Origin: a virus
Virus record (IMG/VR): IMGVR_UViG_3300045988_110853
Coordinates: 132,077 to 196,076 of that record
Reading direction: 5' to 3' (one strand)
Length of the DNA stretch: 64,000 bases
A program made the translations under genes and the position numbers. The notes beneath the pieces are model-generated. The model was not told where the DNA came from and made no database searches. It saw only the letters and a list, made by a program, of their open reading frames with translations. This document shows, in pieces, positions 2,515 to 52,180 of this stretch; within the stretch, counting starts at the first letter, position 1, and each line of letters opens with the position of its first letter.

Positions 2515-2527
2515 GGAGGTTTTTTAA

Positions 2528-3365: not shown

Positions 3366-3376
3366 ATAAAAAAAAT

Positions 3377-3418
3377 AAGGGAATGAAACTATTTTGTTTC
3401 ATTCCCTTATTTTTTTTA
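3377..3418 (+). terminator. Rho-independent terminator closing the plus-strand late gene block.
   Basis: Perfect 13-bp stem aagggaatgaaac / gtttcattccctt followed by a T8 run. Confidence 0.7.
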
Positions 3419-4470: not shown

Positions 4471-4989
4471 TTACTTTGAAGTTGAGCCAAATCCTCCAAG
4501 GCGATCACCAGAAGCATTATCATCTTCGGTGATTAAATAAGGTTTAATAACACCTTGACCAATAACATCACCTTTATGAAGTTGAATATCAAAAGGAGAT
4601 AAATTAATCATTTGAAAATAAATATGTCCTTCATTGTCAGGATTATTATAATAGTCTGCGTCAATAATCCCAACGCCATTAGCAAGAATAAGCCAATATT
4701 TTAAAGGACAAGAACTACGAACTGATAATTCAAGATATGTATTATCATTTAATTCGCATTTAATTCCAGTGGGCACAAGAGTTGGTTTTGCCTTAAGATT
4801 TTTTGTCATATTACCCATATCTTCAAGAGAAATTGAATCAAAATAACGTGTTGGAAATCTATTTAGCAAATTCTTATATGCTGGAATTATAATATCTTCC
4901 GCCACTGTAAAATCATAGCCTGCGGATTTCGCCGTCTTCCTTACGGGCAAAACCGCGTCTGGATATTTGCTTACTCGTTCAAACTTCAT
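4471..4989 (-). CDS. dut: dUTPase (dCTP deaminase/dUTPase fold).
   Basis: Motifs KSAGYDF, RSS, GIIDADY and C-terminal GGFGSTSK. Confidence 0.75.
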   Translation of the reverse strand: MKFERVSKYPDAVLPVRKTAKSAGYDFTVAEDIIIPAYKNLLNRFPTRYFDSISLEDMGNMTKNLKAKPTLVPTGIKCELNDNTYLELSVRSSCPLKYWLILANGVGIIDADYYNNPDNEGHIYFQMINLSPFDIQLHKGDVIGQGVIKPYLITEDDNASGDRLGGFGSTSK

Positions 4990-5237: not shown

Positions 5238-5497
5238 TAACCTACCTCAACTTTAATTTCTTTTCTATTGGAATAATTTAAACTATTACTTTCATAAATT
5301 TTTGGAATTAATTCATTAATAAAATCTTCAATACCATATAAACGTATAGTATCAGTATCATTCTTATAACAAGATGCTACTAAAACATTTGGAAGATCAG
5401 AAATACTACAAGTTCCAATACTTACTGCCATTCCATCATCATAAGTTTTAAAAACATTTTGTTCCATTGAAAATAAATTAATATTACAAACAATCAT
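5237..5497 (-). CDS. Hypothetical protein (86 aa).
   Basis: Track ORF; TAA stop immediately followed by the next ATG. Confidence 0.35.
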   Translation of the reverse strand: MIVCNINLFSMEQNVFKTYDDGMAVSIGTCSISDLPNVLVASCYKNDTDTIRLYGIEDFINELIPKIYESNSLNYSNRKEIKVEVG

Positions 5498-6031
5498 TTA
5501 ATTACACTCCACAATACCAGCATCATATTGGAATAAATAAAAACAATAAGATTCATTATCAATATTTATCCAAATTTCAATAGCGCCATCATTATTTTTT
5601 TCCCAACCAACAATACTTCCTAATTCTTGACAAAGTATAATTACCATACTCGCTACAGAACCAGTTGAAATAATTGGAGGAATATTTTTGTGAAAAATGG
5701 TATAATAATTATAATCTTTACATAATAACATATAATACATTCCATATTCACTCATTTCATTGATACTACTCATTAATTTATTTAATTCTTCTTCATTGAT
5801 TGGATTCATTTGTATCATAATATTTTTATTAAAATCATATAAATTCATTCCAGTTTGAAATGTAGTAGAATTATCTGATAAACTATTAGTAGTAGTTCCT
5901 ATCATTACCCATTCATTTCCCGTGTAATAATATTGTTTCTGATCTTCACCAGAAATGGCAATAGTTCCTTCTTCGAATTTACGAGGAGAATTATATAATT
6001 CTCCCATTGTATTAGTATAAAAAACATTCAT
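5498..6031 (-). CDS. Hypothetical protein (177 aa).
   Basis: Track ORF; no recognisable motif. Confidence 0.35.
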   Translation of the reverse strand: MNVFYTNTMGELYNSPRKFEEGTIAISGEDQKQYYYTGNEWVMIGTTTNSLSDNSTTFQTGMNLYDFNKNIMIQMNPINEEELNKLMSSINEMSEYGMYYMLLCKDYNYYTIFHKNIPPIISTGSVASMVIILCQELGSIVGWEKNNDGAIEIWINIDNESYCFYLFQYDAGIVECN

Positions 6032-8832: not shown

Positions 8833-8880
8833 ACTAAATATAGTAGTTCTTTCAGAATATTCTACTATATTTAGGTTTTG
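8831..8880 (-). terminator. Hairpin between the dNMP kinase gene and nrdD; terminator or attenuator.
   Basis: 16-bp inverted repeat aaactaaatatagtag / ctactatatttaggttt. Confidence 0.4.
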
Positions 8881-8900
8881 TTAGTAAATAATTATTTATT

Positions 8901-9497
8901 TTAGTCCATTTCCGCCCATTGTTTAACTTTTTGGCAGATAGAATTAACAATATTCATATAATCATCGAATGTTTCATTTACCATAATATTACATTTAATA
9001 TTATTCATCTTTTGGAATTGAATTTCATCAGCAGAGTATCTTCTAATAATTTCATCTACATTAGGATTTTCTTCTCTATTTAATTGCCTAATTAAACGAG
9101 TTTTTCCTTTCGCGGTGATATAATATATTTCTAATTCAATTCTATCATCTTCAAGAAGACTCATAATTCCATCAGGATTAAAAACGCCAATATTAATTTT
9201 ATCATTAGATAAACTATCAATACTTGTGCCATAATACCAATTGTTAAAATTGGTGGTTTCTAACATTTTATTTTCATCAATTAATGTTAGAAATTCATCT
9301 TCTAAAACAAAATGATAACTTTCATCTGCTATTTCTTTTTCACGTCTTGGGCGTGTAGTATGGCTTATAATAGGATTTAAATATTTTTCTAAGTGGGAAA
9401 AGATAGCCATCATTAGACTATCTTTTCCAGCCCCAGATTTTCCACATAATGCGATAATTTTATACATCTTCTTCAATTCCTCCTTGATAGCGAGCAT
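8901..9497 (-). CDS. Guanylate-kinase-like (d)NMP kinase.
   Basis: P-loop GKSGAGKDS plus the GMP-kinase signature TTRPRREKEIADESYHFV. Confidence 0.65.
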   Translation of the reverse strand: MLAIKEELKKMYKIIALCGKSGAGKDSLMMAIFSHLEKYLNPIISHTTRPRREKEIADESYHFVLEDEFLTLIDENKMLETTNFNNWYYGTSIDSLSNDKINIGVFNPDGIMSLLEDDRIELEIYYITAKGKTRLIRQLNREENPNVDEIIRRYSADEIQFQKMNNIKCNIMVNETFDDYMNIVNSICQKVKQWAEMD

Positions 9498-17480: not shown

Positions 17481-17653
17481 AAATGATTTCCTCCTAATAG
17501 GTTTTTTAAGTCTATTAGTCGTAGTGTCAATTATTAAAAATAATAAGCAGCCCTATCTACAATTTCGTAATCTTCTATAATAATCTAAGGACTAATATTA
17601 TTATTCCATATATTTCGTTCGCATTTACCAACGATATTAATTGTCACATAACC

Positions 17654-19282
17654 CTATTCAGAATACAATTTCTCGTATTCCTCCTCGGACGACTTAAACT
17701 TGATTAAACTGATGCCATCAGGCATAGTTATCTTCAAGGTAGGATTTTTATCTTTTGACATTAAAGTTAAGTTATTAGACGCAACTTTTATTCCTTCAAC
17801 GGCAATAGATGCTTCTTCTACCCCTTGGCCCCAAAGTGGTTTAAGTTGAGCGATATCAATAATATCTTTTCCAACTAAATCATTAGTGTGATAAATAAAA
17901 TCAACACTGTAAATTGGGGTGAAATCAAAATCTCGTAAAGCAGAATTCGCATATTCGATAAATTTATCAAAATTTTCATCAATAATACCAAATCCAAAAG
18001 CATTAGGGTGTCCCTCTGCATACATAATTAAATTTGATTTTTGACAAAATTCTCTAAAGTCCTTAAGTGCGGATTTGTCGTATCCTCTGCCGGAGCCTTC
18101 CCAACAAATTTGTTGAGTCTTTTCGTCTATTGTTTTATTAAGAATTAAAACAGGACGTTGATATTTACTCATTAATTGATTAGCTATTAAACCAGTCAAA
18201 TTTTTATCAGCAGCAAATCCATCTAACTTAATTCCTAAGATTTTATTACTTAAAAGATTTTGATTTGCGATTATCTATTCAATTTTTTCCAAGCTAGTGT
18301 CTCTGATTTTAGTTTGCCTATTCTTGATATTAGTACAATTACGACAAGCTTGTTCTACTCTCGTCTCTGCTTGACCTTTACATCCACGCTTTGTTGAAGG
18401 GACAAGTTCGTATCCCTTAAAATCAAGCATTGATTCGAATAGCATGAGCTTTTCTTCTTGCGTCCCAACACGAGTAGTTGCATTAACTAAAGGAGCAATA
18501 TAGAAAGCTACTCCAATAGGCGTAATCTCATTATTAAAATGAAACTAATCTCTATTGATTATGCCTCTGAAGTAAGGATTGGTGATTTGTTGTAAGCCTT
18601 TATTAATTAAATGTTTTGTTTCAAAATCACGCATATCCATCATGTCAGCCACCATTCCAAGAGCAACTAAATCTAATATATGATCCGCATAATGAACGTT
18701 CATAAGTTCATCAATATAACAACAAAACTTATAAACCATTCCTACGCCAGATAAAGATTTAGTTGGATAATCACATAATTGATTGTTAATAATACAAGCA
18801 TACTATGATATTTTATCAGCTTCATGGTGGTCTATTACCAACACGTCAATACCATTTTTATATAAATATTCATGTTCTAAATAATCATTTGATGAAGAAT
18901 CTGGAGCTATTACTAATTTAATATCTTTATCAATACTATCTGGTATAATTCCGTGTTGTTTTCCTGCATGGACACGATAAAAAATATTGTTTAGCACAAA
19001 CGCAGGAAAAAGACAGTATAGGTAATTCATGAGAGCGGCCGCCGAAGTGTAGCCATCACAATCACTATCTACCTATATAAGAACTTTGTCATTTTGTGCT
19101 ATATGTTTGACGAGCATTTTTGCGCCACTTTCTATTCTATCAATAGTTGCTGGCTCTATAATGTCATCATCAGTGGTATTAAGATAATGAGAAATATCTT
19201 GTAATTTAATTCCTCTATTGGTTAGCACCTGTTCGACCGCCGAATACTGCGGGATGCGAGGAGCTTTTAGTTGATAGTCCAT
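17654..19282 (-). CDS. RecJ-like DHH/DHHA1 phosphoesterase (ssDNA exonuclease-like), 542 aa, with 4 in-frame TAGs at 19073, 18803, 18545 and 18275.
   Basis: Four same-frame track ORFs join without other stops. Motifs VDSDCDGYTSAA (DHH motif I/II), VLVIDHHE (DHH motif) and AEGHPNAFGFGI (DHHA1 GGH-like). Confidence 0.75.
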
Positions 19283-19351
19283 AGGCTATTCAACCTCCTT
19301 TCATAATACCACCACTATTATTTAAAAATTTCTATAATTTACTTATTCATA

Positions 19352-24589: not shown

Positions 24590-25534
24590 TTAGAATTTAA
24601 AACCTTCGGTAGCTGCAGGTGCAGATGTAGATGCAGTAGCATTCTGCTTAGAAGCTTTATATTCATCTTGGCGCTGCTTCAAAGTAGCAAGATAAGTTTC
24701 ACGAGCTGCCATTGCTTCAGTAAGTTCTTTTGCGGTAATAGAACTTTCATCATCCCAAACATAAGGCTCTTTAGCCCCGCCAGTAATAACGAAGTCTTTA
24801 CGAGTGCTCTGAACCTCACGAACATTATCATCGCCAAATGCGGACTCTTCACGGATTTCACGCTTAATTACTTCAGATACCTGACGACCCCAAAGCTTTG
24901 TAAATACAGGCTCAGAAGGAGAAGCGCCAAGGCCCTCATAATAAGCCATAGCCCCAGGGTTGGTAGCAGTAAACTCAACAGGGAGCAAGGACTTGCGGAA
25001 ATCGAAAATTGCGCCCTTAACAATTACCTTTTCAGGAATATTGTGCTCTTCATCAGCATCAACATGAGTTACATTGGTGATAATCATATCGCACTTAAAA
25101 GTATTGCGCTGTTTTTCATCATCAATAAGGGTGTTAGTAGTATGAACGAAACCGCCTTCATTGCGCTTGGTACTTACAAGCTCTTCCTTACCATTACGGT
25201 CGGAATAGAATTCATTAAGACCAATTGCGGAATCAACACGAAGCTTAGCAGCTTTATCCTCTCCATCAGCCATATAATTACCAATTGTACCATCAATAAT
25301 ATTCTGAAGAATACTGTATGTAGCATTAGGAGCACCCTTGGCAGTGGTTTGAGTTACATAAGTAAAATGAACCTGGACGATATTAGTAAGAGCATTATCA
25401 GTAGCAATACTAATAGTACCAGAAATAAAAGGAGTGCCGGGATTCTTAGAATTTTGTCCGGTCACCTTATTTTCCAAAGCATGTTCGTACAAGATACCTT
25501 CAATATGAGTAGCATTTTCCATTACTTTCTTCAT
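24590..25534 (-). CDS. Hypothetical protein (314 aa), possibly the ssDNA-binding partner of the Sak4-like ATPase; GC-rich.
   Basis: Position next to Sak4; C-terminal acidic/aromatic tail ...TEGFKF. No direct motif support. Confidence 0.3.
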   Translation of the reverse strand: MKKVMENATHIEGILYEHALENKVTGQNSKNPGTPFISGTISIATDNALTNIVQVHFTYVTQTTAKGAPNATYSILQNIIDGTIGNYMADGEDKAAKLRVDSAIGLNEFYSDRNGKEELVSTKRNEGGFVHTTNTLIDDEKQRNTFKCDMIITNVTHVDADEEHNIPEKVIVKGAIFDFRKSLLPVEFTATNPGAMAYYEGLGASPSEPVFTKLWGRQVSEVIKREIREESAFGDDNVREVQSTRKDFVITGGAKEPYVWDDESSITAKELTEAMAARETYLATLKQRQDEYKASKQNATASTSAPAATEGFKF

Positions 25535-25548
25535 AAATAAATTTCTCC

Positions 25549-26665: not shown

Positions 26666-26944
26666 TCAATCCTCATTACTTAAAGTATATCCATTAAGAT
26701 TATGCCCGAGAGAACGGACAAAACAATCAAGTTCATCAATAAATACCATACTGCCTTTTGGGTAATTCCCATTAATATAATCGTGATATGAAATAAAATT
26801 AATTCCAACAATTCCATATCCTTCTGACTTAGTTCTCATAGCATTAGGATTAGAGCAAGCAATAATAGCATTTTTCTCTTTGGCTAACAATATTAATCTA
26901 CTCGTTTTTCCAGTTCCACGTTTATCAATTATTCTATACATCAT
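26666..26944 (-). CDS. Small P-loop protein.
   Basis: DKRGTGKTSRLILLA. Confidence 0.35.
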   Translation of the reverse strand: MMYRIIDKRGTGKTSRLILLAKEKNAIIACSNPNAMRTKSEGYGIVGINFISYHDYINGNYPKGSMVFIDELDCFVRSLGHNLNGYTLSNED

Positions 26945-27954
26945 TTTATACTATACCCAAATTCTTTGGCTTTAAAATAGTCTTGCCAATAATCTTCTCG
27001 TGCATCTAACTCTTCACGAGAGCATTCTTCTATTACTTCAAAACTAAAATTTTCTACTCCAATAGCTAACATAGCAGGATAAAGTTTATTGCGTGTAGCG
27101 GATTCGGCGCCAATTCCGCGTTTAATATGTTGTTTCCAACGTGCGGAAAGGTCTACTGCCTAACCTACATAACACATTTGATTTTCTAAATTAGTAATTT
27201 TATAAATTCCTGTGTGAACTCCTGAGCCAATTACTCGACCAATCAAATCAGTAGTTGGTTTTTCATAATAGCTCTTCCAAATTACTTTGTTTAGTATATC
27301 TTTATCGCGAAGTCTTGGTTCAATAGAGCGGAGAAGGCTGATTTCATCAATATCTATTTGAGGCAATTGTAATTTATAAAAATCAGCTTGGGATTTAATT
27401 TCTTCTGCGCGTTTCGCTGCATCAACCGCGGCTGCGACTTCTCTACTATGTAATTGAATTTCTTCATCTAATTTATTTAATTCTTCTTTTTTAGAATTAA
27501 TTAAATTAGATAATTCTAAAGAACAATCAACAAGAGTTGATTGGTATTCATTTTCATATTCTTCTTTAGCTTTTGTATATTTAAATTCTTGTTTATTTAA
27601 ATCATATTCAAGACGAACGCGAGCATTTTCCATTGATTGCTGATAGAAAATATCCGCTGATTGTTTTGCTTGGTTCTATAAAGAATTTAAGCTATTTTCA
27701 ACTTCGTCTCTCTTGGACTAAAGAATATTTAAATTATTTTCTACTTCTTCTTTTCTAGAAGTAATAGCTTTTACTGCCGTTGATAATATTGTATACTAAT
27801 CATCTAAATCCATATTTTTAGATTCAAGGTCTTTATTTTGTTTTACTATTTCTTCATTAAGTTTTTGAATATTATTTAGTCGTGGACGTAAAACAAAATA
27901 TATTAAAAATCCACCAATAATAAACGACAGTATAGCAATTATTAAAGTAAGCAT
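26941..27954 (-). CDS. Membrane-anchored coiled-coil protein with a C-terminal GIY-YIG nuclease domain (338 aa, 4 in-frame TAGs).
   Basis: Track ORF 27160..27633 ends ...GSGVHTGIYKITNLENQMCYVG. Read-through of TAG at 27160 gives AVDLSARWKNHIKRG...EVIEECSREEL, completing GIY-x10-YVG...R...H...E. The upstream frame through 3 TAGs reaches ATG 27952 with a TM helix LTLIIAILSFIIGGFLIYFVL and heptad-like repeats. Confidence 0.5.
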
Positions 27955-27970
27955 AAATATTTAAAAAAGA

Positions 27971-29836: not shown

Positions 29837-32260
29837 TTATACTTTAGTTACTGACTTAATTTTGCTAGACCTAATAATCTGATTACCAATAGAAATTCGT
29901 CCAAGAGTAGGAATATCTTTAGCAGAAATACAAATAGACGCTTTATCTCCTGTAATAAGTAGATTATCTTCATCAGCAATTAGCGCGGTTGCGGTTAACA
30001 AACCGGTAGATCCACTAATTTTATATATACTAAGTCCTTTACCACCGCGTTTTTGTAAAGTCAATTCATCTAAAGAAAATTTCTTTCCTAAACCATTTTC
30101 ACTAAATACTGCCACAGAATCAGTATTATGACGAATTGGCATAGCAGAAATTACTTCATCACCTTCGTTAAGATTAATACCCTTAACACCGCTGGTTGCG
30201 CGAGAAGTCGCTGTAATGTCTGTAGAATTAAATTTGATCCCCATACCATTTTTAGTTGTCAATATAATAGGTTCATCTTTAATTAAACATACAGATGCTA
30301 AACTATCCCCTTCGCGCAAACTAATAGCAACAATACCAGTCTTTTTCTTTGTATTAATATACTCTTCCAAAGCAGTCTTTTTTACAAGTCCATTTTTAGT
30401 AGTAAATAATACATACTTAGCATCAGTATCTCTATAAATTGAATACATTGTCTCAGGATTTTCATCAGGAGCCATATTTACAAGACTTCTAATAGACTGA
30501 CCTTGTGAACTATTTGTTCCTACTGGAATATTATCAACTAAAAGTCGATACATTACACCCTTATTAGAAAAAATCATTAAAGAGTCAATAGTATTAGTTC
30601 TTAAAACACAAGAAGTAATATCTTCTTGAGATTTAATTCCTTTACCATTTTTCTTTTGAGTGCGATAAGAAGCAGTTGGAATACGCTTAATAGTTCCACC
30701 CTCAGTCATTACAACAACACACTTCTCAGGTTCAACATATTCAATTTCTTTATCTTCTTTTTCTACTGAAGCTTGAATAATTTTAGTAATACGAGCATCA
30801 CCATAAGTATTCTTAATAGTAATGAAAATCTTTTCAAGTTCATCAGTAGGATCTTTAAGGATCAAAGCTAAACGCTCGCTCTCTTTAATTAAATTGTCTC
30901 TTTCCTCTTGGATTTCAACTTTCTCTAAACGAGCCAGTCTACTTAATTTAATATCAAGAATTGCCTTAGCTTGGTCTTCATCCAAGTTATACTGAGTCAT
31001 CAAAGCCTGGCGCGCAGCTACCGCACTTTCACTCTTTTTAATAAGAGCAATTACATTATCAATATCTTCAAGAGCTTTAAGAATACCATTTAGAATATGG
31101 ATACGTGCTTGTGCTTTATCATATTCATATTTTGTTTTTCTTAATAATACATCTTTCTGATGACTAATATAAATTTCAATAAGTTGTTTGAGATTTAAAA
31201 GTTTTGGTTTCTTATTAACAAGAGCAACTTGATTAAAACTATAAGTTTCTTCAAGACGAGATAGTTTATAAAGCTTCGCAATTATAGGTTGAGCGCTAAC
31301 TCCTTTATCCAGTTCAATTACAAAACGCACTCCATCCTTAGTGCTTTCATCTCTAATGGCAACAATACCATTTAGTTTACCTTCTTCACAAAGTTTATCA
31401 ATTTCTTCGCAAAGTGTGTCCTTTGAAACTTTATAAGGAATAGTAGTAAATACAATTAAATCATGCGTTTTCTCATGCTCGATGATATAATCAGCTCTCA
31501 TGCGAGCACGACCCTTACCAGTCAAATAAGCAGTTTTTAATTCATCTTTATTAATAACTGTTCCACCAGTAGGAAAATCGGGGCCTTGAACGAATTGAAG
31601 TAAATCTTCAACTTTACATCCAGTATTACGTAAAGTATAAATAATTGCGTCCATAATTTCAGTTAAATTATGTGGAGCAAAAGAACAAGCCATAGCAACA
31701 GCAATACCAGTAGTGCCATTAACCAGTAAATGCGGAATTCTGCCTGGTAAATATACAGGTTCATTCTCAACATCTGTATAAGCTAATTGCCAATCACAAG
31801 TATTCTTTTTAATATCAGCAAGCATTTCTTCGCCAACTTTAGATAATTTACATTCAGTATAACGATAGGCAGCAGGCTCTCCGCCATCACGACTGCCATT
31901 ATTACCGTGAAATGAAATTAATGGATAACGCATCGTCCAAGGCTGACTTAAAATGCATAAAGCTCCATAGATAGAACTATCACCATGAGGATGAAAACGA
32001 CCCATCGCATCACCAACAGGCTGTGCGCATTTGACAAACTTCTTATTATTAAAGTATCCTTTATCAAACATATCATAAAGAATACGTCTTGCTACTGGTT
32101 TTAATCCATCTTCTGCTGATGGGATTGCTCTATCAGTTATTACACTCAAAGAGTAATCCAGGAAGGACTGCTCCACTTCGTGAACTATCGGAGTTTTCAG
32201 AATCTCTCCCATATTTTTTAAGAACCTCCTCAACTGTAATTTTTCCAGTAGCAAGACCAT
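29837..32260 (-). CDS. Type II DNA topoisomerase subunit A (GyrA/ParC-like, T4 gp52-like). The true start is probably the internal Met (MGEILKTP...) near 32212.
   Basis: N-terminal SFLDYSLSVITDRAIPSAEDGLKPVARRILY matches the GyrA/ParC signature; 800-aa size; TAA stop. Confidence 0.8.
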   Translation of the reverse strand: MVLLLEKLQLRRFLKNMGEILKTPIVHEVEQSFLDYSLSVITDRAIPSAEDGLKPVARRILYDMFDKGYFNNKKFVKCAQPVGDAMGRFHPHGDSSIYGALCILSQPWTMRYPLISFHGNNGSRDGGEPAAYRYTECKLSKVGEEMLADIKKNTCDWQLAYTDVENEPVYLPGRIPHLLVNGTTGIAVAMACSFAPHNLTEIMDAIIYTLRNTGCKVEDLLQFVQGPDFPTGGTVINKDELKTAYLTGKGRARMRADYIIEHEKTHDLIVFTTIPYKVSKDTLCEEIDKLCEEGKLNGIVAIRDESTKDGVRFVIELDKGVSAQPIIAKLYKLSRLEETYSFNQVALVNKKPKLLNLKQLIEIYISHQKDVLLRKTKYEYDKAQARIHILNGILKALEDIDNVIALIKKSESAVAARQALMTQYNLDEDQAKAILDIKLSRLARLEKVEIQEERDNLIKESERLALILKDPTDELEKIFITIKNTYGDARITKIIQASVEKEDKEIEYVEPEKCVVVMTEGGTIKRIPTASYRTQKKNGKGIKSQEDITSCVLRTNTIDSLMIFSNKGVMYRLLVDNIPVGTNSSQGQSIRSLVNMAPDENPETMYSIYRDTDAKYVLFTTKNGLVKKTALEEYINTKKKTGIVAISLREGDSLASVCLIKDEPIILTTKNGMGIKFNSTDITATSRATSGVKGINLNEGDEVISAMPIRHNTDSVAVFSENGLGKKFSLDELTLQKRGGKGLSIYKISGSTGLLTATALIADEDNLLITGDKASICISAKDIPTLGRISIGNQIIRSSKIKSVTKV

Positions 32261-32705: not shown

Positions 32706-32997
32706 ATGATGGTCTCCCTAAAAATTCATTTTCTCCACAATCAATATTAAAAGAAGTATTAGCAAAAATAGTAATTTTATCAATAAAATAATCATTAATA
32801 ATATTTACTCTATTATCTGGAAATAACTTCTGTAATTGTTCGTGAAGTTCTCTACAAGTAATTACATCAATATCTTTATTGACGTGAGCTAAAACAACGT
32901 CATTTTTACAAATAGGAATTATTTCAATAGGTATTCCTTTATAATTACTTACATATCCTTTATCAGTTTTATACATCAATATTGGCCCTTTCTGCAT
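32686..32997 (-). CDS. Hypothetical protein.
   Basis: Track ORF. Confidence 0.3.
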   Translation of the reverse strand: MQKGPILMYKTDKGYVSNYKGIPIEIIPICKNDVVLAHVNKDIDVITCRELHEQLQKLFPDNRVNIINDYFIDKITIFANTSFNIDCGENEFLGRPSYDSDLY

Positions 32998-33181
32998 TTA
33001 ACTCAATGAAAGATTTACGAGGGCCAACTGATTCGCCCATTAAATCCATAAATGTTTTATTAACAAGATTCATATCATCCATTGTAATCTGTTTCAAAGT
33101 GCGAGTTTCTGGATTCATAACTAATTCCATTTCATGAGTATCCATTTCGCCTACGTGTTTCTCCAATATCACTATTGGCAC
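32969..33181 (-). CDS. C-terminal tail of the type II topoisomerase large (GyrB-like) subunit. It is separated from the main ORF by about 950 bp, as a detached exon or a separately translated fragment; the upstream boundary is unresolved.
   Basis: GEMDTHEMELVMNPETRTLKQITMDDMNLVNKTFMDLMGESVGPRKSFIELNAERANIDV aligns with the conserved GyrB C-terminus (YKGLGEMNPEQLWETTMDP...[25 protein letters not shown]). The same frame stays open upstream; a possible internal start MMAVNTLAGAKK is preceded by AAGGTAGG. Confidence 0.65.
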   Translation of the reverse strand: MPIVILEKHVGEMDTHEMELVMNPETRTLKQITMDDMNLVNKTFMDLMGESVGPRKSFIELNAERANIDV

Positions 33182-33296
33182 TGACTATTTCTTCGCTCCG
33201 GCTAACGTATTAACTGCCATCATCACGCCTACCTTTTCGAAAGTATGTATCAATAATACTTTCTACTCCCCGACAAAGGGGATAGTCGATACAGGA

Positions 33297-33986
33297 TTAA
33301 ACTACGATATTTTTCCAATTCTAATAACTCCATACGTTCGTAAAAGAACCATATGTAAGTTTATCAGAATAATCTTTATAAACTTCTCTTATATTTTCTC
33401 CATTTTTACGACGCAATCTTATTTGATAAACATCTTGTTCGGTCATTTTAGAGCGACCATTTTTACTTCCCTAATTAGAAGTATTATGTTTATGAAAATT
33501 TTTATTTTCAGTAGTATATACTTCTGGCATAATATTTTTCCAAGTATCACCATTCCAAATTTTATGGAAGCCAGATTCACCAATTAAATTTTTATAATCT
33601 TCATAAACTTCATTTTTTCTTTCTTGATTATTATAACGAGTCCTAATATTAATAACATCTTGTTTAGTTAATTTATGACTTGGATGACTTTCTTCAGCGT
33701 TAAATTGTCCTCCGGGAGTCATGTTATACTAATCAGGATAAGTATTATAATACTTTATATAATACTATTCTTTATTATTAAGTTCTTCTATAGAACATTC
33801 TTCTAATATTTCAAAAGAAAAATTATTTATTCCATATTCTAATATGTCTTTATATAACTTTTTATTTTTTTCTCTATACCAGTTATATGATTTTTTATGT
33901 TCTCTAAAACGCTATTCTATTTGCGTGCTTTGTCCTATATAAGATAAGTTATTTATTTTATTGGTTATTTTATAAATACCAATCAT
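33297..33986 (-). mobile_element. GIY-YIG homing endonuclease gene (229 aa, 5 in-frame TAGs) inserted within the topoisomerase large-subunit gene.
   Basis: MIGIYKITNKINNLSYIGQSTQIE.RFREHKK is the canonical GIY-YIG module; two C-terminal NUMOD-like repeats (LTKQDVINIRTRY..., MTEQDVYQIRLRR...); ATG 33984-33986, TAA 33297-33299. Confidence 0.7.
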
Positions 33987-34138
33987 TTTAATTACCTCAC
34001 CAATTATAAGTAAGATAATATCGTAGTTCTTCCCACGAGATTATCTCCACTAATATTTAACACTCATTCATTTCAGTTTTTCCTGAAATGTCCTAAAATA
34101 TCAGCGAGACTACCTCGTTAGCCGCCAACTGGAAAATT

Positions 34139-35923
34139 TTACCAATTCGCAACCCCGCCGATCAGCGGAAAAGTAGGTAAGGGCCAGACTTCCTCGTACC
34201 CTTTCATACGGCCTAATTCAAAAGATCGGTTCATAGTTTTTCTGAATGTTTCAAGCGCGGCATCGTCTTTAAGATACTTAATATTTGTGCCCCAGGTAGC
34301 CTTATAAAGAGGGGGAACCGCGGCATAAATATAACCTTTTTCAATTAGCTCAGGCGCAAATTTCCAAATAAATGTAAGGAACAAAATACGAATATGACTT
34401 CCATCAACATCAGCATCCGCAGTAATAATAATTTTACCATAACGTAATTTTGATTCATCAACGATTACTTTACCATCTTTAACTTCAAGACCAAAAGCAT
34501 CAATCATTGCGCTAATTTCTTTATTTCCTAATGCTTTGTGTAGATCTGTTTTCAAAGTATTAAGAATTTTACCTCTTACAGGTAAAACTGCTTGAGTATT
34601 GCGATTGCGAGCTTCCTTAGTGGGGCCTTCTGCGGAACGTCCCTCAACAATAAAAATTTCACATTCGCTTCTATTCTTACTATTGGCATCACTTAATGTG
34701 CCAGGTAGAATAGTTCTTTTTTTGGTATCAACCTTACGAACAGTTTCTTTAGCCTTTTTCGCCTTTTCACGAGCGGCGCGCGCCAACATTGCTTTATCTA
34801 CAATAGCTTTAGCATCTTTTGGATTATTATCAAGCCAAACTTTTAAGTCTTTTGAAACAAGACGTTGAACGATAGTTCTTGCTTCACTACTGGATAAAAC
34901 ATCTTTAGTTTGGCCGGAAAAAACTGGATCAGGCATAATAAATGAAAGAACAAGACTTAATCCTTCTTTAAGCTCCTCGCCTGTAATATTGGCGTCTTTT
35001 TCTTTTAAAAGGCCCTTATCACGAGCATATTCATTAATAGAAGTAGTAAGTGCTGTTCTAAAACCTGTCAAATGAGTTCCACCACTATTAGGAATTGAAT
35101 TAGTATAAAGCTTATAAGTATCGCTATAAGTATCATTATATTCCATAGCAATCTTTACACCAATTCTATCTTCAATATTTTCAGTATAAAAAATTGAAGT
35201 AAGAGAAGTTTTATTACTATTTAAATCTTTAATATAATCAAGAATACCATTTTTTGAAGTAATTTCTTCTTCTGGTTTATCAAGATAGGTAAAATGGAAT
35301 ACCATACCAGGAGAAAGATAAGCCAATTCTTGAATCTGTTTTCTTAAAGCATCATAATCAAGAATAATACCTTCTTTAAAAATGCTTTCATCTGGCAAAA
35401 ATTTAACCCAAGTTCCGGTTTCTTTGCCAGTCCATTTTTCTTCTTGATAATCTTTTAATTTTCCTTTTTCAAAAGATGCAACCGCATGCTTACCATCACG
35501 GAAAGATGCTACTTGAAAATAACGAGAAAGAGCATTTGTGGCTTTTGCACCAACACCATTCATACCGCCAGATGTGTTATATCCAGTTTTTCCATTACTA
35601 TCAAATTTTGCACCTGTATGAAGTTTAGTATAAACATTTACTAATGTTTCACTACCGTCTTTTGCTTTTCCAAAAGGAACACCACGTCCATTGTCGCGGA
35701 TTTCAACATAACCATCTTTAGATACTGAGATATCACAACGAGTGCAATGTCCGTTTAAATATTCATCAACAGCATTTGAAATAATTTCAAGAGTAATATG
35801 TCTAACTCCATCGGGTCCAGTAGAACCAATATACATACCTGGTCTAAGGCGAATGGCTTCTATACCTTCAAGAGTTTTAATATCTTTTACTCCATAAGAA
35901 TCTAAATTAATTGTCGTTGCCAT
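34139..35923 (-). CDS. Type II DNA topoisomerase large subunit (GyrB-like ATPase plus TOPRIM; T4 gp39-like), lacking the extreme C-terminal tail that sits at 32969..33181.
   Basis: GHKL ATPase motif (RHITLEIISNAVDEY), TOPRIM (CEIFIVEGRSAEG), and DADVDGSHIRILFLTF...PPLYK. Ends ...RMKGYEEVWPLPTFPLIGGVANW at TAA 34139, just where GyrB proteins continue with KG-LGEMNPEQLW. Confidence 0.85.
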   Translation of the reverse strand: MATTINLDSYGVKDIKTLEGIEAIRLRPGMYIGSTGPDGVRHITLEIISNAVDEYLNGHCTRCDISVSKDGYVEIRDNGRGVPFGKAKDGSETLVNVYTKLHTGAKFDSNGKTGYNTSGGMNGVGAKATNALSRYFQVASFRDGKHAVASFEKGKLKDYQEEKWTGKETGTWVKFLPDESIFKEGIILDYDALRKQIQELAYLSPGMVFHFTYLDKPEEEITSKNGILDYIKDLNSNKTSLTSIFYTENIEDRIGVKIAMEYNDTYSDTYKLYTNSIPNSGGTHLTGFRTALTTSINEYARDKGLLKEKDANITGEELKEGLSLVLSFIMPDPVFSGQTKDVLSSSEARTIVQRLVSKDLKVWLDNNPKDAKAIVDKAMLARAAREKAKKAKETVRKVDTKKRTILPGTLSDANSKNRSECEIFIVEGRSAEGPTKEARNRNTQAVLPVRGKILNTLKTDLHKALGNKEISAMIDAFGLEVKDGKVIVDESKLRYGKIIITADADVDGSHIRILFLTFIWKFAPELIEKGYIYAAVPPLYKATWGTNIKYLKDDAALETFRKTMNRSFELGRMKGYEEVWPLPTFPLIGGVANW

Positions 35924-37124: not shown

Positions 37125-38426
37125 TTACACCAATCCTTTATCTTTCATAATTCTATAAAGAACTACAATCATTTCTTCACGAGTCATAAATTTTTTATAC
37201 ATTTTACGATTTAAATTATCGCCTTTAATATATCCTTTGCTTTCAGCCCAAGTTCTTTCCGTATCAGACCAAGAACTTGCATTTTTTTCAGCTTGTTGAT
37301 TTAAATAAACTTCCATCATTTCATTAAATTTATCCTGAGTCATATCTTCATCCTCCTCATTAATATTTATATTATCACCAATTTTTTGTTTAAATAATTG
37401 CCATTGGTAATCGCCACTTGTTTTATAATAACTATTCATATCACTTCCGCACATTGGGCGAGGACATAGTTTTCCAGTCACGTCATAGTGGCGAATAACG
37501 CGATCCGCAGGTATATTATATTTCTACATTAATTGCTTTACTAATTGTACTGTATTTTCTATTGCTTTTGGATCAAAATACCAATCAGTATCACTAGCTA
37601 CAATATTAGATTTATTTATTTTACAAGGTCTCACTTCGATTCCAATAGAATTGGCATTTCTACATTCAGGATGCTTATATCCTTTTTTAGTGCCACAATG
37701 CCAAGCTATATCTTCATCTTTAACACTACGGTAAATAATATCTTTTTCATCAACACAATAATGAGCCGAAGATTTGGCTGCTGGATTTTTAAAATAATTA
37801 CTAATATTTTTTGCTGTCCCCAAAGATCCAAAATAATGTATAACAATATACTTTATTTTTCTATTATTACTTTTTTGATAATTAGTTGTTGTTAAATTAT
37901 CTACAATTTTCATATCTTCACCTTTTCCTATAAATTGATCGTATATTTCAACTCCATAATATAATCTCTACTACTGGACTTTTAAACTCTAATCTTTTGG
38001 TCGTTCAAACTAAGTTAAAACTATATTTGAAGCAGTCTATATATCTTTACAATTTATTAAAGTATTCCAAATGGTAGGATAATATGTAGAAAGTTGATAA
38101 ACTAAAAATTCAAGTTGAGTATTTAAATCTCCTATTGAAGTATTTTTCTTTTTTGTAAAATCATATAATTGTTTTTTAAGGCTCCAATAGGTCCATTGCG
38201 CTAAGCCATATCCAGCTTTGTCATAAATAAAATTAGTATATTTACCATTGTCTACTTGTTTTGTATACTATTCATCATTTAATCCAAGAGTCTTTTCAAA
38301 ACTATTTTGAAGATTTTTTGGGTTAAAATTTGATTCAGCTTTCAAGTTTCCCATTAATCCCGCGGTTCCGTAGGGATTTTTTATTTGCTTATATAAATAA
38401 TTCCAAATTATTTCAATATTAGTCAT
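37125..38426 (-). CDS. Multidomain endolysin, about 433 aa: an N-terminal lysozyme-like (tail-lysozyme-type) domain plus an amidase_2 (N-acetylmuramoyl-L-alanine amidase) domain plus a C-terminal domain. About 7 in-frame TAGs.
   Basis: GGAGG RBS and ATG 38424-38426. GLMGNLKAESNFNP...GYGLAQWTYW (lysozyme-like) continues in frame through TAGs into track ORF 37524..37913 (IVIHYFGS...AHYCVD, amidase_2), and through TAG 37524 into 37125..37481 (RVIRHYDVTGKLCPRPM). Confidence 0.6.
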
Positions 38427-38488
38427 ATTATCCTCCTTTCTATAAAATAAAAAAGAAAGAGAAGAAATAAATCTTCTCTTTCTTAAAA

Positions 38489-39751
38489 TTACATATGTTC
38501 GGCTATCGCTGCAATTTTAGAACGATGAATTTGTTTTAATTCAACTTCTCCATATACATCTGATCCTCTAAATATCTTAGAAGCACGACGCATACCGTTA
38601 TTAGCTCCTGCGAAAGCGATATCATCAACTTGAGTTTTATCATCGCCATCAATAATACAAATGCCATCTTCGCCAATACGCTGTAAAGTTAATTTCATAA
38701 GTGAAATATCCATATTTTGCGCTTCAGAAATATAAATACCTGCCTTCATTCCAGTAGTATCATAACCGCGGATATCACTTAATGGTAAAAGAACCAATTG
38801 TTCGTTTTCAATCATACGTTCTACAGCTAAACGTCCGCCAAATTTGCTAATTAAAAGATTACCGATTTGACTATCAAGTAATTTTTCATCACGAGTGCCG
38901 GGATAAAAACCTAATTTTGCTGAATTTTTAGTCGCAATTGTATTACAAAATACAATAATTTTATCAATGCGTCCGCGCTCAAACTGATTCATTAAAAAGG
39001 CTAAGCTTAAATAAGTTTTACCTGACCCTGCGGGGCCACGAACCATAGTAATAGTATTGTTAATAAGACTATCTGCGAATAAGGCTTGATATGGGTCATC
39101 TTTCATTGGTTTTACTTTTCCGAATTGAGTAGAATCAAAATTACCAAATGATATGGGTCGATATCCATCGCCTGTATAACATACTTTGTCAACAATATTA
39201 TTATTTTTGTCTTTTATAATTAAATATTCATTAATATGTAAATTATAAATATTTTCATACTGATTAGAATAAAAATCGGCCATTTCCGGGTCGGACATTG
39301 TGATTTCCACATATCCTTTATATTCATCAATTAATTCTTCATCTATACTTTGGATATGATTTTTATCAAAGAAAAGATTCGCCATTGCTTTTAATGATAA
39401 ATCATTAGTAATGAATATAGTATTTGGATGAGCTAATTTAAATTCAATAGCCGTAGATAAAATTTTACTATCATCAGTAATTGGAAGGTTAGAATCTTCA
39501 ATTATTTTTAATCCATCTAATTTAAATAGTTGGATAATATAATCATCAGGGTTTTCATTTAATTTATGTAATACTTTACGAGCTGAATATTTCACGTCAG
39601 CGTCTTTATTTGATGATGTTTTTATATTTTCTAATTCTTTTAAAGTAATAGAAGATATTACTGGCGTATATTCTTCCTCTTGGAGAAATGTGTCAACCGC
39701 CATCAGCAAACTACAAGTATCATAAAATTTATACATCTTCGTACTCATCAT
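38489..39751 (-). CDS. PIN-domain plus PhoH-like ATPase protein.
   Basis: N-terminal PIN-like region; Walker A GPAGSGKTYLSLAF; PhoH-like C-terminus. Confidence 0.65.
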   Translation of the reverse strand: MMSTKMYKFYDTCSLLMAVDTFLQEEEYTPVISSITLKELENIKTSSNKDADVKYSARKVLHKLNENPDDYIIQLFKLDGLKIIEDSNLPITDDSKILSTAIEFKLAHPNTIFITNDLSLKAMANLFFDKNHIQSIDEELIDEYKGYVEITMSDPEMADFYSNQYENIYNLHINEYLIIKDKNNNIVDKVCYTGDGYRPISFGNFDSTQFGKVKPMKDDPYQALFADSLINNTITMVRGPAGSGKTYLSLAFLMNQFERGRIDKIIVFCNTIATKNSAKLGFYPGTRDEKLLDSQIGNLLISKFGGRLAVERMIENEQLVLLPLSDIRGYDTTGMKAGIYISEAQNMDISLMKLTLQRIGEDGICIIDGDDKTQVDDIAFAGANNGMRRASKIFRGSDVYGEVELKQIHRSKIAAIAEHM

Positions 39752-43607: not shown

Positions 43608-44993
43608 TTACTTATTCAGCGCCTTTGAAAGCATTTCCTTAATGTCAATGCCATTTTCAGACATAGCTTCAATGACCTGATTTGCGGAACCCATAACATC
43701 CTTTACAAGACGAGCAGAGTTTCCGTCGCCATACTGGACGATCTTATCCACATTGGTAAGGGGCGCAGCCGCATTTGCCACAATTTGAGGCATTGCATTG
43801 AAATACATTTCAATGATAGAAGCTTCACCCATCTTCTTCTGTGCTTCTGCTTTCTTGTCAATTGCTGCGGCTTCAGCTTCACCAACGGCAGCAATACCAG
43901 CAGCTTTCTGCTCGGCCGCAAACTTCTCAGCTTCCGCGCGAGCACGCATAGCCTTAGCTTCCTGCTCGATTTCATAAGCCTTAGCTTCTGCGTCTTTCTG
44001 ACGACGGATCAAATCTGCTTCAGCAGCCTTTTCCGCAGCATACTTATCAGCATCAGCCTGCTTACGAACCAACGCAGTCAGTTCATATTCCTTAAGCTCA
44101 ATTTCCTTCTGCTTCAGTTCAGCTTCGCGCTCAGCCTTTGCGATATTCGCATTGGTTGCCGCAACATCCTTGAGCTTACGCTGGTTTTCAGACTCAATAC
44201 CTGCGGCTGCCTCAGCCTGAGCTTTCTTAGTGTCAGCTTCCTGCTTCAACTGAGCCTGCTTAATAGCGAGATCGTTATTGCGGATTGCGATTTCCTCAGC
44301 AGCCTTAACCTTAGCGTCATTAGACTGCTTAGCATTTTCCGCACGAGCAACTTCAATCTCACGTTCCGCATTGGACTTAGCGATCGCTGCGTTCTTACTA
44401 ATCTGAGCGACATTATCAATACCAAGGTTAGTGATAACATCATTATCATCAGAGAAGTTCTGAACGTTAAAGGTAATCAACTCAAGGCCATAACGAGCCA
44501 AATCAGGAACTGCGTTCTCCTGGACCTTTTCGCTAAACAGCTTACGATCGCTAACCATATCAGTCAACTTCATCTGACCGACAATCTCACGAATATTACC
44601 TTCAAGAAGGTCATTAATCTTACGAGAAATTTCATCACGACCTACATTAAGGAAGTTCTGAGCGGCGAGCGCAATCATTTCAGGATCTCTGCCAACACGA
44701 ACGGAAACTGTAGAGTCAACACGAACGTTAATATATTCGGCGGTAGGAACCGCAGATCCGGTCTTTACATCAATCTGAATTGCGCCAAGAGCCAGCTTAT
44801 CCAGACGTTCGAAGAAAGGAATCTTCAAGCCAGCTTTACCAACAAGAATTCGAGGTTTCTTATGGACACCACTGATGATATAAGCCATATCAGGCGGAGC
44901 CTTTACATAACCATTGAGGAAAATGAAAATTACCAGTAGCGCAATAAGAACTACAGGAATTGCCGGAAGGATAAATGAAATAATAGCGGGCAT
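43608..44993 (-). CDS. SPFH/band-7 (flotillin/YqiK-like) membrane protein with a long Ala/Glu/Lys-rich coiled coil; GC-rich.
   Basis: N-terminal TM segment; SPFH core (...GLKIPFFERL...IDVKTGSAVPTAEYINV...); flotillin-like EA-rich repeats. Confidence 0.75.
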   Translation of the reverse strand: MPAIISFILPAIPVVLIALLVIFIFLNGYVKAPPDMAYIISGVHKKPRILVGKAGLKIPFFERLDKLALGAIQIDVKTGSAVPTAEYINVRVDSTVSVRVGRDPEMIALAAQNFLNVGRDEISRKINDLLEGNIREIVGQMKLTDMVSDRKLFSEKVQENAVPDLARYGLELITFNVQNFSDDNDVITNLGIDNVAQISKNAAIAKSNAEREIEVARAENAKQSNDAKVKAAEEIAIRNNDLAIKQAQLKQEADTKKAQAEAAAGIESENQRKLKDVAATNANIAKAEREAELKQKEIELKEYELTALVRKQADADKYAAEKAAEADLIRRQKDAEAKAYEIEQEAKAMRARAEAEKFAAEQKAAGIAAVGEAEAAAIDKKAEAQKKMGEASIIEMYFNAMPQIVANAAAPLTNVDKIVQYGDGNSARLVKDVMGSANQVIEAMSENGIDIKEMLSKALNK

Positions 44994-50270: not shown

Positions 50271-50455
50271 AGATAATCCTCCAATACATATTCAATCTTA
50301 TCCAATCCTTTAAATTCTTTAAGAATTGTAATAACTCTTAAAATAGTTAAAGCGTCATTTAAATCATCCGATAAACAGATTGGGGACTCCCACTCATTGG
50401 CGGAAGCCCACTCTGCGTCTAATTCTAAGTTTCTAATTAATTTATTAATTTTCAT
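50267..50455 (-). CDS. Hypothetical small protein.
   Basis: Track ORF. Confidence 0.25.
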   Translation of the reverse strand: MKINKLIRNLELDAEWASANEWESPICLSDDLNDALTILRVITILKEFKGLDKIEYVLEDYL

Positions 50456-51818
50456 TATTGACCTCCTCAGCCTCTTCCATATCAGGCGCGGTCTCTTCTG
50501 CTTTTACCAAGCCTTCAAGACACTTAAAGGCAAAATTCTTATGCTTATAAGCACAGAACTTCGGACGATTAAGGATACGAATTACAACGCCTTCGCGGAC
50601 ATGAGTCTTACCGATCGGGTCAGGACCATCATAATACTGCTCAGCGATTTCTTTAACCTGTTCGCCAGCAGTCATACCTGCGTCATTCCAATTAGTGGTG
50701 TCATCAAGAAAACCTCTCCACAGAACAGGGACACACTTACAGCCCATCTGCTCGCAACGATAACGCATGAAATCAGGAGTATATTCAACAACATCCCCAT
50801 CTTCATTAGTCATAGTCATACGATAGACATAGAAATCAGACTTGGGAAGCACATCATAGCTACCATCACCATAGGTATAATAACCAGTGCAAGAACAACC
50901 ATAAGAGAAGGTAGTAGTTTCACCATATTTCTTAAGGAAATCCTTATCATTCAGCTTTCTATTAGAAGCAGAGGACATGATAGGCATACCCTCATCGGTA
51001 AAACCAACAACCTCATAGTAGACTTCTTCACCCTTATGGAGCTTACCCTCAAAGAAATCTGCGTGCTTCTTACGGAACATATTAGAACCATAGAAGCCAC
51101 CCTCCCAGTCATTCAGCACAGTGCGACGAGTGCCAGATACATATCCATATTCATAAATGGGAGTACCATCACGACGCATAATTCTATCCAAAAGAGTTCT
51201 CTTATAACCCTTAAACATAGGAAGATAACCGGTGCGCTGAGAAGTGCCATGCATCTTCAAAGTGATTTCAATAAGGTCATTCGGCTTAAAAGCATCAAGA
51301 TTGTAAGCCAACTGCTCCGTATCAGCATGCTCGATAAACAGAGGAGCAATAGGAACTTTCTTCTTACGAACATGATTTCCTTCACTTACCTGGCCCTGAC
51401 GATTCTGACGCATAGGAATATATTTCTTACAAATTTCGTGGCCGTTCAAAGTAGTGAAAGCAAAACCCTCGGTCAGCTCGCTAAGAAGAACCCCAGTATA
51501 AGAAACGCAATTAAGATGGAGAAAAAGACCATCACTCTTCTCTCCGCGCAAACGGATAGTGGTAATATTACGCTTCATGGGGTCCATATAACCGCCAATG
51601 CTCTTACCATTTTCATCTTTCTTACGCAAAAGATTATTGATTTCCGCGAATTCAGGACTTACCTGACCGTCAGTAGGAAAATAAATACCAAGTTCATCAA
51701 CTTCATAAGAAGTATCAACGCACACAGTATTACCGAAACAGTCACCGAGCATCAACCGATCGGCATTCGGGTGCTTTCGCAAATTCTTGATTTTACAAAC
51801 ATACGCATTATAAGACAT
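50445..51818 (-). CDS. Putative ATP-dependent RNA ligase with an N-terminal tRNA-binding (Myf/EMAPII-like) OB domain; GC-rich.
   Basis: N-terminal VCKIKNLRKHPNADRLMLGD matches the tRNA-binding-domain signature (KHPNADKL). Candidate nucleotidyltransferase motif I ITLKMHGTS (K-x-H-G, as in Rnl5/DraRnl-type ligases). Linked to kinase and phosphoesterase genes. Confidence 0.5.
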   Translation of the reverse strand: MSYNAYVCKIKNLRKHPNADRLMLGDCFGNTVCVDTSYEVDELGIYFPTDGQVSPEFAEINNLLRKKDENGKSIGGYMDPMKRNITTIRLRGEKSDGLFLHLNCVSYTGVLLSELTEGFAFTTLNGHEICKKYIPMRQNRQGQVSEGNHVRKKKVPIAPLFIEHADTEQLAYNLDAFKPNDLIEITLKMHGTSQRTGYLPMFKGYKRTLLDRIMRRDGTPIYEYGYVSGTRRTVLNDWEGGFYGSNMFRKKHADFFEGKLHKGEEVYYEVVGFTDEGMPIMSSASNRKLNDKDFLKKYGETTTFSYGCSCTGYYTYGDGSYDVLPKSDFYVYRMTMTNEDGDVVEYTPDFMRYRCEQMGCKCVPVLWRGFLDDTTNWNDAGMTAGEQVKEIAEQYYDGPDPIGKTHVREGVVIRILNRPKFCAYKHKNFAFKCLEGLVKAEETAPDMEEAEEVNNEN

Positions 51819-51820
51819 AA

Positions 51821-52180
51821 TTAATCAACCCTTTCTCTAATTCTTTTCTCTTCCTCTAATTCCCAATTATGAGTAGCATAACCATACTCAAAGTCCACGG
51901 GATCATCAACCTCATAACCCTGTTCCCGCATTTTCGATGTTGCTTTATACATCATTCGACCAAGACTCTTAGATTTACCCTTTTGGACCAAACCAAAATC
52001 AATAAGATCACTAATCAAACGGCTAATTTTCTGATTAGACAATGGACGCAAAATCATATCTCCCATACGAATTTCATCGAGAGTCATAGAACCATCTGTA
52101 TTATTTAATACATCTAAGATTCTAAACTTATAATCTGCATTGACTTCTGGACGAGTAGTTGTCCTAGATCTTCCTGGCAT
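51821..52180 (-). CDS. Hypothetical protein with a winged-helix-like region.
   Basis: Track ORF. Confidence 0.3.
   Translation of the reverse strand: MPGRSRTTTRPEVNADYKFRILDVLNNTDGSMTLDEIRMGDMILRPLSNQKISRLISDLIDFGLVQKGKSKSLGRMMYKATSKMREQGYEVDDPVDFEYGYATHNWELEEEKRIRERVD

Follow-up and report, generated by a model that had tools for sequence, protein, structure and literature searches.

A probable td-like group I intron with a TAG-recoded GIY-YIG endonuclease gene in the GyrB-like topoisomerase gene of a gut phage

On the minus strand of a 64,000-nucleotide (nt) stretch of viral DNA (positions 132,077 to 196,076 of IMG/VR record IMGVR_UViG_3300045988_110853; the whole stretch is called the window here), the gene of a GyrB-like topoisomerase II subunit is parted in two by an insert that harbors a homing endonuclease gene (HEG) of the GIY-YIG family. 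The question raised by this locus is whether the insert is removed from the transcript, so that one protein is made, or whether the subunit is produced as two separate polypeptides. The analysis points, with high confidence, to a mobile intron of group I, subgroup IA, whose 3' domain resembles that of the T4 td intron, in a gut phage in which TAG is recoded. This is a known and classic kind of phage element, and what is new is the gene that hosts it. Self-splicing and homing are the activities that its anatomy and the comparative data suggest.

The GyrB-like gene consists of two exons separated by 1,044 nt, arranged as follows.

34198..35923, minus strand: exon 1, codons 1-575 and the first base of Leu576, ending ...AAA GGG T
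33154..34197, minus strand: predicted group I intron, 1,044 nt, beginning ACGAGG... and ending ...AACACG (terminal G)
33297..33986, minus strand: GIY-YIG HEG inside the intron, 229 codons plus TAA, with its ATG at 33984..33986
32969..33153, minus strand: exon 2, the TA of Leu576, then GEMDTHEMEL...ANIDV and a stop; DNA_gyraseB_C tail

A first reading of the DNA made from its letters alone (the sequence-only reading) had proposed that a topoisomerase II gene is interrupted here by a GIY-YIG element and that its missing C-terminal tail is encoded at 32969..33181. Both proposals are borne out by Pfam searches: the open reading frame (ORF) at 34139..35923 (minus strand, 594 amino acids, aa) contains the HATPase_c, DNA_gyraseB and Toprim domains, and the 70-aa ORF at 32969..33181 (minus strand) matches PF00986, DNA_gyraseB_C (E-value 8e-13), only at profile positions 12-63 of 63. 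The splice point of exon 1 was placed by the in-frame join and by the intron-less alleles of relatives. Excision of 33154..34197 is in frame and yields ...FELGRMKGLGEMDTHEM... / ...FELGRMKGLGEMDTHEMEL..., 636 aa in total, in which the PF00986 match lengthens to profile positions 3-63. The predicted ligated exons read AAA GGG TTA GGC GAA ATG (junction AAAGGGT|TAGGCGAA, in longer form ...CGTATGAAAGGGT|TAGGCGAAATGGAT..., in the spliced-exon sequence ...AAAGGGTTAGGCGAAATG...), and the protein reads ...GRMKG + L + GEMD... across the junction, which falls after the first base of the Leu codon (T|TA). It had been argued that joining ...GRMKG to VGEMD... would recreate a motif like RYKG-LGEMN; the motif is indeed restored, but the valine was placed one codon off, in the intronic ...CACG|TAGGC, and the residue is leucine.

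Comparison with relatives, which had been proposed as the way to define the insertion point, did so. The GyrB-like gene was found at 69 loci in a scan of viral contigs; mapping by tblastn showed that the majority of these are uninterrupted. Nine loci (L001-5, 12, 13, 44 and 60) encode an uninterrupted 636-aa protein that is 99-100% identical to the predicted spliced product and reads KGLGEM at the junction. An insert of 1,023-1,083 nt that carries a HEG lies at exactly the same site in 15 loci, and one locus, L016, has at this site an insert of 287 nt with no ORF, a HEG-less version; besides this one, another short intron is found in L065. The GyrB proteins of the carriers are 64-99% identical, and the divergence of HEG and ribozyme tracks that of the host gene, four other contigs holding near-identical copies of the intron (for L006 and L007, identity in the 3' domain is 98-99%). 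Presence and absence of the intron are polymorphic among alleles 98-100% identical in protein. Intron-less, HEG-bearing and HEG-less alleles thus coexist in near-identical phages, a pattern that a homing intron should produce, and homing would explain the polymorphism.

The exon bases that flank the site differ between the two kinds of allele. Intron-bearing alleles always read GGG T|TA GG(C/T/A), whereas intron-less ones (site ...AAAGGTCTTGGAGAAATG...) read GGT CTT GGA or other synonymous variants, never GGGTTAGG, and the consistent differences are confined to positions -2, -1, +1 and +4. A co-conversion tract, that is, clustered exon divergence near the site, was looked for, and the synonymous divergence of about 7% was instead found spread along the gene. 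The pairing requirements of helices P1 and P10 account for the fixed exon bases at least as well as co-conversion does; endonuclease resistance or co-conversion may add to the bias.

The RNA itself also supports a group I intron. All 17 introns at this site (the window's copy and the HEG-less one of L016 included, 16 of them carrying the HEG) start after ...GGGU and have G as their last base, and in every one of them a single contiguous guide, 5'-GUCUG|GCCCUU-3', serves both P10 and P1. P1 pairs at six of six positions in all 17, with the U•G at the 5' splice site throughout, and in L021, L042 and L045 an exon change from A to G is matched by a guide change from U to C. P10 pairs at five of five positions in 16 introns and at four of five in the remaining one. 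The predicted elements of the window's intron are the following.

34179..34203, minus strand: P1, 5' exon AAGGGU (34198..34203) with guide GCCCUU (34179..34184), U•G at the splice site
34185..34189, minus strand: P10 guide strand GUCUG, whose partner is the exon 2 start UAGGC (33149..33153)
34169..34177 (CCUACUUUU) with 33228..33237 (AAAAGGUAGG), minus strand: P3, four covarying variants at the site
34123..34168, minus strand: two hairpins between P3 and P4, P3.1/P3.2-like (A 34155..34168, B 34123..34151), with compensatory changes in both
34113..34120, minus strand: J3/4 and the P4 5' strand, UAACGAGG; the P4-P5-P6 core spans 34032..34120
34107..34110 with 34043..34046, minus strand: P5 GUCU with P5' AGAU, the variable P5 extension 34048..34106 lying between them
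34035..34040 and 34032..34034, minus strand: P4' UCUCGU and P6 GGG, invariant in same-site introns
34021..34028 (AACUACGA) with 33300..33307 (UCGUAGUU), minus strand: P6a, whose partner lies within the last HEG codons
33991..34019, minus strand: predicted hairpin over the HEG Shine-Dalgarno sequence (AUUAUCUUACU...AGUGAGGUAAU)
33183..33287, minus strand: 3' catalytic domain, with P7 GACUA (33283..33287) pairing with UAGUC (33183..33187)
33267..33282, 33239..33263, 33228..33237 and 33194..33227, minus strand: P7.1, P7.2, P3' and P8, parts of the 3' domain
33188..33193, minus strand: J8/7, AAGAAA
33163..33178, minus strand: P9 hairpin, three of six pairs with compensatory changes; the region 33154..33178 includes the terminal G at 33154

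Compensatory changes are seen in six of the eight pairs of P6a, in the loop of which the HEG is located and where the HEG-less L016 has a short hairpin instead. P7.1, P7.2 and P8 covary, and the covariation of P3 extends across the wider intron family with many more variants. P7.1 and P7.2, which lie between P7 and the P3 3' strand and align to their td counterparts, are characteristic of subgroup IA (td-like); the self-complementary stretch ctccccgacaaagggga singled out in the sequence-only reading turns out to be the plus-strand copy of P7.1. In an alignment of 11 distinct copies with a linker in place of the HEG (A1), on which helices P1 to P9 were drawn by hand, 98.8% of the cells are paired and 32 of the 70 pairs have changed on both sides. 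When the partners were slid by 1-3 columns, only 38-42% of the cells paired and 2-4 pairs were changed on both sides, and none of 500 shuffles reached the observed values on four of five measures, while four of 500 did so on the fifth (further pair types). RNAalifold, given no structure, returns the same helices, P3 among them, which it lengthens to 9 base pairs. Together these helices make up the conserved core of a group I intron, its P3-P8 and P4-P6 domains with the P3/P7 pseudoknot.

For a covariance model, R1, the 3' domains of the same-site introns were the sole input (alignment A2). The model's single match in the window lies at 33154..33295 with 169.6 bits, and it detects the proven T4 td intron with 34.4 bits (E 1.5e-6 in 698 kb), aligning P7, P7.1, P7.2, P8 and P9. 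Introns at other sites of the GyrB-like gene (L053/55, L065, L068) are also detected; the T4 nrdB intron gave no R1 match, and the order of P3, two hairpins and P4 is not shared by it. The viral contigs contain a 16-mer core motif in at least 119 stretches, and R1, run on 80 of these, finds 98 significant matches (29-175 bits); judged by these matches, the phage intron family is abundant. The intron reading, the first of two alternatives offered from the letters alone, is therefore strongly favored by the exact in-frame join, the covarying group I core, the existence of a HEG-less version and the cross-detection of td.

Related introns occupy other conserved motifs of the GyrB-like gene, IVEG|RSA in L065 and DADVDG|SHI in L068, which makes this gene an intron hotspot in these gut phages. 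The L068 intron is at 5497..5791; L053 and L055 also have introns, and a third site lies near residue 500. L065 holds three introns in its GyrB-like gene (about 2777..3843, 4081..4350 and 4595..4825). The DADVDG|S site is the motif position at which the 50-nt translational bypass of T4 gene 60 is found (DADHDG|LG). A blastn search of the HEG-less intron against phages gave only a 61-nt match, to unannotated DNA of Enterococcus phages EF1 and EF5. In the EF5 locus (L070, MF001361.1, about 1657..2625), R1 (97.9 bits) picks out a group I intron of this family that carries no annotation. It has the same layout of P1, P3, two hairpins and P4 and splits two 'hypothetical' coding sequences, and the ORF in its P6a region is annotated only as 'hypothetical protein'.

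Several observations weigh against the reading of a mobile group IA intron in a TAG-recoded phage. There is no P2 between P1 and P3, and two hairpins are instead found between P3 and P4, unlike in td: the P3 5' strand begins one base after P1, and the hairpins separate P3 from UAA-P4. Because this architecture departs from td, the intron is filed under subgroup IA with no choice among IA1, IA2 and IA3. That the order is unprecedented was considered and rejected, since the layout is common in the family (at least 41 of the 80 loci, and the EF5 intron) and group I introns are known to have P3.1 as an optional element (PMC3873408). Also on the negative side, helices P4, P5, P6 and P7 are invariant among same-site copies, their support coming only from more distant relatives: the P4 of these copies, CGAGG/CUCGU, is replaced by CGGGG/CCCGU in td, EF5, L068 and L065, a compensatory change, and P6 changes from GGG/CCU to GGC/GCU in more distant relatives and td. 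A search with Rfam Intron_gpI, which the sequence-only reading had recommended, gave no match on the whole 1.8-kb region or on the 5' part alone; what it did give was a weak match on GAAGAAAUAGUC, with 12.6 bits for the 3' part of the window's intron and 23.4 bits (E 4.8e-4) for the HEG-less one of L016, and all Rfam matches stay below the gathering score of RF00028 (50 bits). This failure is attributed to the ORF of about 690 nt in P6a and to the IA-type periphery. As a control, the 3' half of the proven td intron reached just 28.5 bits in the same kind of search; the shortfall therefore says little, the test being insensitive for this subgroup. Finally, neither the 64-kb window nor nine related tRNA-array fragments yielded a TAG suppressor tRNA (anticodon CUA).

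It could be argued that the intron is decayed and inactive, in which case the topoisomerase gene of this phage would be a pseudogene or would need a co-infecting helper. That splicing is deduced rather than seen, and that the Rfam scores are sub-threshold, would fit such a state, but the proven td intron also falls below the Rfam threshold, the core helices and the splice-site pairings are intact, as are the exon frames and the HEG, and there are the near-identical copies on the four other contigs. Moreover, the compensatory changes indicate continuing selection for the fold, so that decay is very unlikely.

The second alternative of the sequence-only reading was a HEG-mediated split like that of T4 genes 39/60 with MobA, in which a 594-aa N-terminal and a C-terminal protein of about 60-70 aa would assemble. 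From T4 it is known that genes of this family can be divided in this way, and both pieces are open in the window, where the frame of exon 1 continues through 19 further codons before it meets a TAA and the 70-aa ORF begins with a GTG at 33181. Nevertheless, the relatives argue strongly against it. The intron begins with an in-frame UAA (AAA GGG TAA) in L021, L022, L042, L046, L047 and the L056 group, so that the read-through tail YEEVW... is not conserved, the stop being present in six orthologue groups; the GTG sits in P9 and is GTA in L046, L047 and L056; and in L046 and L047 an in-frame TAA precedes exon 2 by two codons. The independent start that had been suggested for the C-terminal fragment does not hold either, since the putative ribosome-binding site AAGGTAGG and the following MMAVNTLAGAKK are the P3 3' strand and then P8, both of which covary with their partners. 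A split would also leave unexplained the RNA covariation and the 287-nt non-coding version at the same site, and the conserved C- and N-terminal extensions of MobA-type splits are not found here. A gene divided in this way is thus highly improbable.

The endonuclease within the predicted intron is encoded by a frame that has five TAG codons (starts at 33914, 33767, 33731, 33473 and 33323) and is free of TAA and TGA. When TAG is taken as Gln, the product matches Pfam GIY-YIG (PF01541, E 6.6e-8) and is 29% identical over 116 aa to the catalytic domain of I-TevI, with GIY, YIG, R, E and the Asn of (Q/G)YN aligned; further matches are to PDB 1MK0/1LN0 and to phrog_7168 'homing endonuclease' (E 2e-37). 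The gene is intact in all 16 orthologues, as a frame of 229 or 238 codons with 1-5 TAG and no TAA or TGA. The chance of 229 codons free of TAA and TGA in DNA of 32% GC is about 1e-6 (the author's estimate from base composition), which, together with the intact orthologues, excludes a chance ORF. Among the orthologues, TAG alternates with CAA/CAG, as in YPD(TAG)YN/YPDQYN, IGQS/IG(TAG)S and WSY(TAG)NWK/WSYQNWK, which means that TAG encodes Gln; the TAG-recoded gene had been recognised correctly from its letters. Elsewhere in the window, the Pfam domains of PolIII-alpha (one TAG), NrdD (one), RecJ (17534..19300, seven) and endolysin (seven) run across in-frame TAGs, which extends this reading of TAG to the whole genome. 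That the TAGs are real stops, the HEG being dead under the standard code, is scarcely credible: that no CUA-anticodon tRNA was found is what speaks for it, whereas all 16 orthologues keep the frame with TAG alone, at positions that swap with CAA/CAG, and the domains of the four other genes cross TAGs. No listed stop-to-stop frame of at least 120 codons ends in TAG, but this follows from how the frames are defined.

The endolysin (37125..38516, minus strand; Phage_lysozyme2 and Amidase_2) is readable only across its seven in-frame TAGs, and no TAG is present in GyrA, GyrB, the gene of a protein like the major vault protein (MVP) and others; genes therefore differ greatly in how much they use TAG. 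A second GIY-YIG protein (26941..27960, minus strand, 337 aa, four TAGs) is free-standing and not intron-borne; its nuclease domain is preceded by a membrane-like segment at the N-terminus and a long region resembling a coiled coil.

The hairpin that would bury the Shine-Dalgarno sequence of the HEG is predicted in all 16 HEG-bearing introns, at -9 to -14 kcal/mol, and is retained with a different sequence in the L056 group. The end of the HEG, AUC GUA GUU UAA, is the 3' strand of P6a, and this strand, although it codes for protein, shows covariation with the one it pairs to.

An intein, a group II intron and translational bypass were dropped, as the insert is no in-frame fusion, bears group I hallmarks and is 1,044 nt long. 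For the group I intron, the proposed model is that the RNA folds after transcription, the guide holding AAGGGU (with the U•G) and UAGGC in place. Free guanosine would then attack after U34198, and the freed exon would attack after the terminal G33154, so that the exons join and a 636-aa protein with ...RMKGLGEM... is made. The HEG product presumably cuts intron-less alleles during co-infection, with the intron being copied in by repair. Translation of the HEG would require TAG to be read as Gln and is probably also restrained by the Shine-Dalgarno hairpin, its last codons forming a strand of P6a.

The closest known system is td with its endonuclease I-TevI in T4 (subgroup IA2). Compared by eye, the 3' domains agree element by element and in the same order (P7 GACUA, P7.1, 'GUAG', P7.2, P3', P8, J8/7 (A/G)AGA(A/U)AUAGUC and P9), a GIY-YIG HEG lies in the P6a loop, and the host is a gene of DNA metabolism. 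In I-TevI, the buried Shine-Dalgarno sequence and the end of the HEG in P6a are known to delay translation and to protect splicing (PMC2988022), and a Shine-Dalgarno hairpin and a coding P6a strand are also predicted for the window's intron. The two differ in host gene, thymidylate synthase in T4 and a GyrB-like topoisomerase here, and, apart from P2 and the two hairpins, in the P9.1/P9.2 extensions, which the window's intron lacks. The C-terminal half of its endonuclease has no detectable similarity to that of I-TevI and consists of two repeats of about 45 aa, and TAG is read as Gln.

In T4 genes 39, mobA and 60, the large subunit of a phage topoisomerase II is likewise the target of a homing-endonuclease element. 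MobA, however, is an HNH enzyme, and that system has a 50-nt translational bypass and no ribozyme; in T4-like phages, splits of the MobA type fall at aa 466-473 and have conserved C- and N-terminal extensions (bioRxiv 10.1101/2022.08.31.505936). The window's site, KG|LGEM, corresponds to 'IKG|LGS' within gp60, and its insert would be removed as RNA. The TGA-recoded 'Agate' gut phages have a recoded endonuclease of a group I intron in an early gene, and it was proposed that recoding delays this endonuclease until late infection (Borges et al., bioRxiv 10.1101/2021.08.26.457843). The present case shares an intron-encoded endonuclease with reassigned stop codons, but the reassignment is TAG to Gln instead of TGA to Trp, the host gene and phage lineage differ, and TAG here also occurs in replication genes, so that the timing argument is weaker. 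The Jug phages, which are gut jumbo phages, carry many group I introns and HEGs in essential replication and packaging genes, some of them confirmed by metatranscriptomes (PMC12880540). Many introns are also present here, the relative L065 having three in one gene; the topoisomerase is not listed as interrupted in the Jug phages (PMC12880540), and their genomes measure 360-402 kb against about 190 kb here.

The GyrB-like gene has as neighbours a GyrA-like subunit (29837..32260), RNase H, PolIII-alpha, NrdD and RecJ, which places it in a replication module. Megablast of the region against GenBank phages gave no match, and the closest annotated proteins are only about 43% identical, which left no annotated relative for use in the comparison. 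At the window's upper edge (63871..64000, minus strand), the 3' half of a tRNA-Leu(UAA) is preceded by non-tRNA sequence; this tRNA is intact in L076 (5325..5412), and in L073 (2128..2865) a tRNA-Leu is interrupted after U34 by 738 nt that have an HNH ORF inside and end in G. U34 is the classic site of group I introns in tRNA-Leu. The L073 tRNA-Leu gave no ARAGORN call, and Rfam no match on the 3' 240 nt, so that this is a candidate intron only. L082 has a phage array of 22 tRNA genes and a transfer-messenger RNA (8738..9082) with the tag peptide DNNYFDSHMAA. The MVP-like gene (MVP_shoulder, Vault_3) adjoins a DUF2828/DUF7788 gene (56522..59038 and 59135..60718, minus strand), both TAG-free. 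Antisense open frames of 317-755 codons (56519..58783, 59114..60778, 50277..51824, 43629..44978 and 24590..25540, plus strand) oppose TAG-free minus-strand genes in this genome of 32% GC; Pfam domains are found in the minus-strand products, and the translations of the plus strand do not look like proteins. These long antisense frames suggest unusual codon usage in the TAG-free subset of genes.

For annotation, the finding means that one GyrB-like protein of 636 aa should be described with a joined coding sequence, in place of a truncated topoisomerase and an orphan 70-aa ORF, and that the endonuclease should be translated with code 15. KGLGEM, which is highly conserved in type IIA topoisomerases, can be added to the sites used by phage group I introns, and the presence of intron-less, HEG-bearing and HEG-less alleles in one phage population offers a natural series for the study of the homing cycle. 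The locus also provides a second case, independent of the first, in which the gene of an intron endonuclease uses a recoded stop codon. More speculatively, and rather doubtfully, the HEG could be gated twice, by the Shine-Dalgarno hairpin and by the five TAGs, which would halt translation until TAG-to-Gln decoding is active, GGT CTT GGA being a selected allele that resists cleavage or is incompatible with splicing. The idea of TAG as a late-gene timer is weakened by the TAGs in RecJ, PolIII-alpha and NrdD. If double gating were true, early ribosomes would be kept out of P6a and the splicing of an essential replication gene would go undisturbed; stop-codon recoding would then belong to the truce that a selfish intron keeps with its host, and this lineage would be a second recoded one in which it does so, independent of the lineage with recoded TGA.

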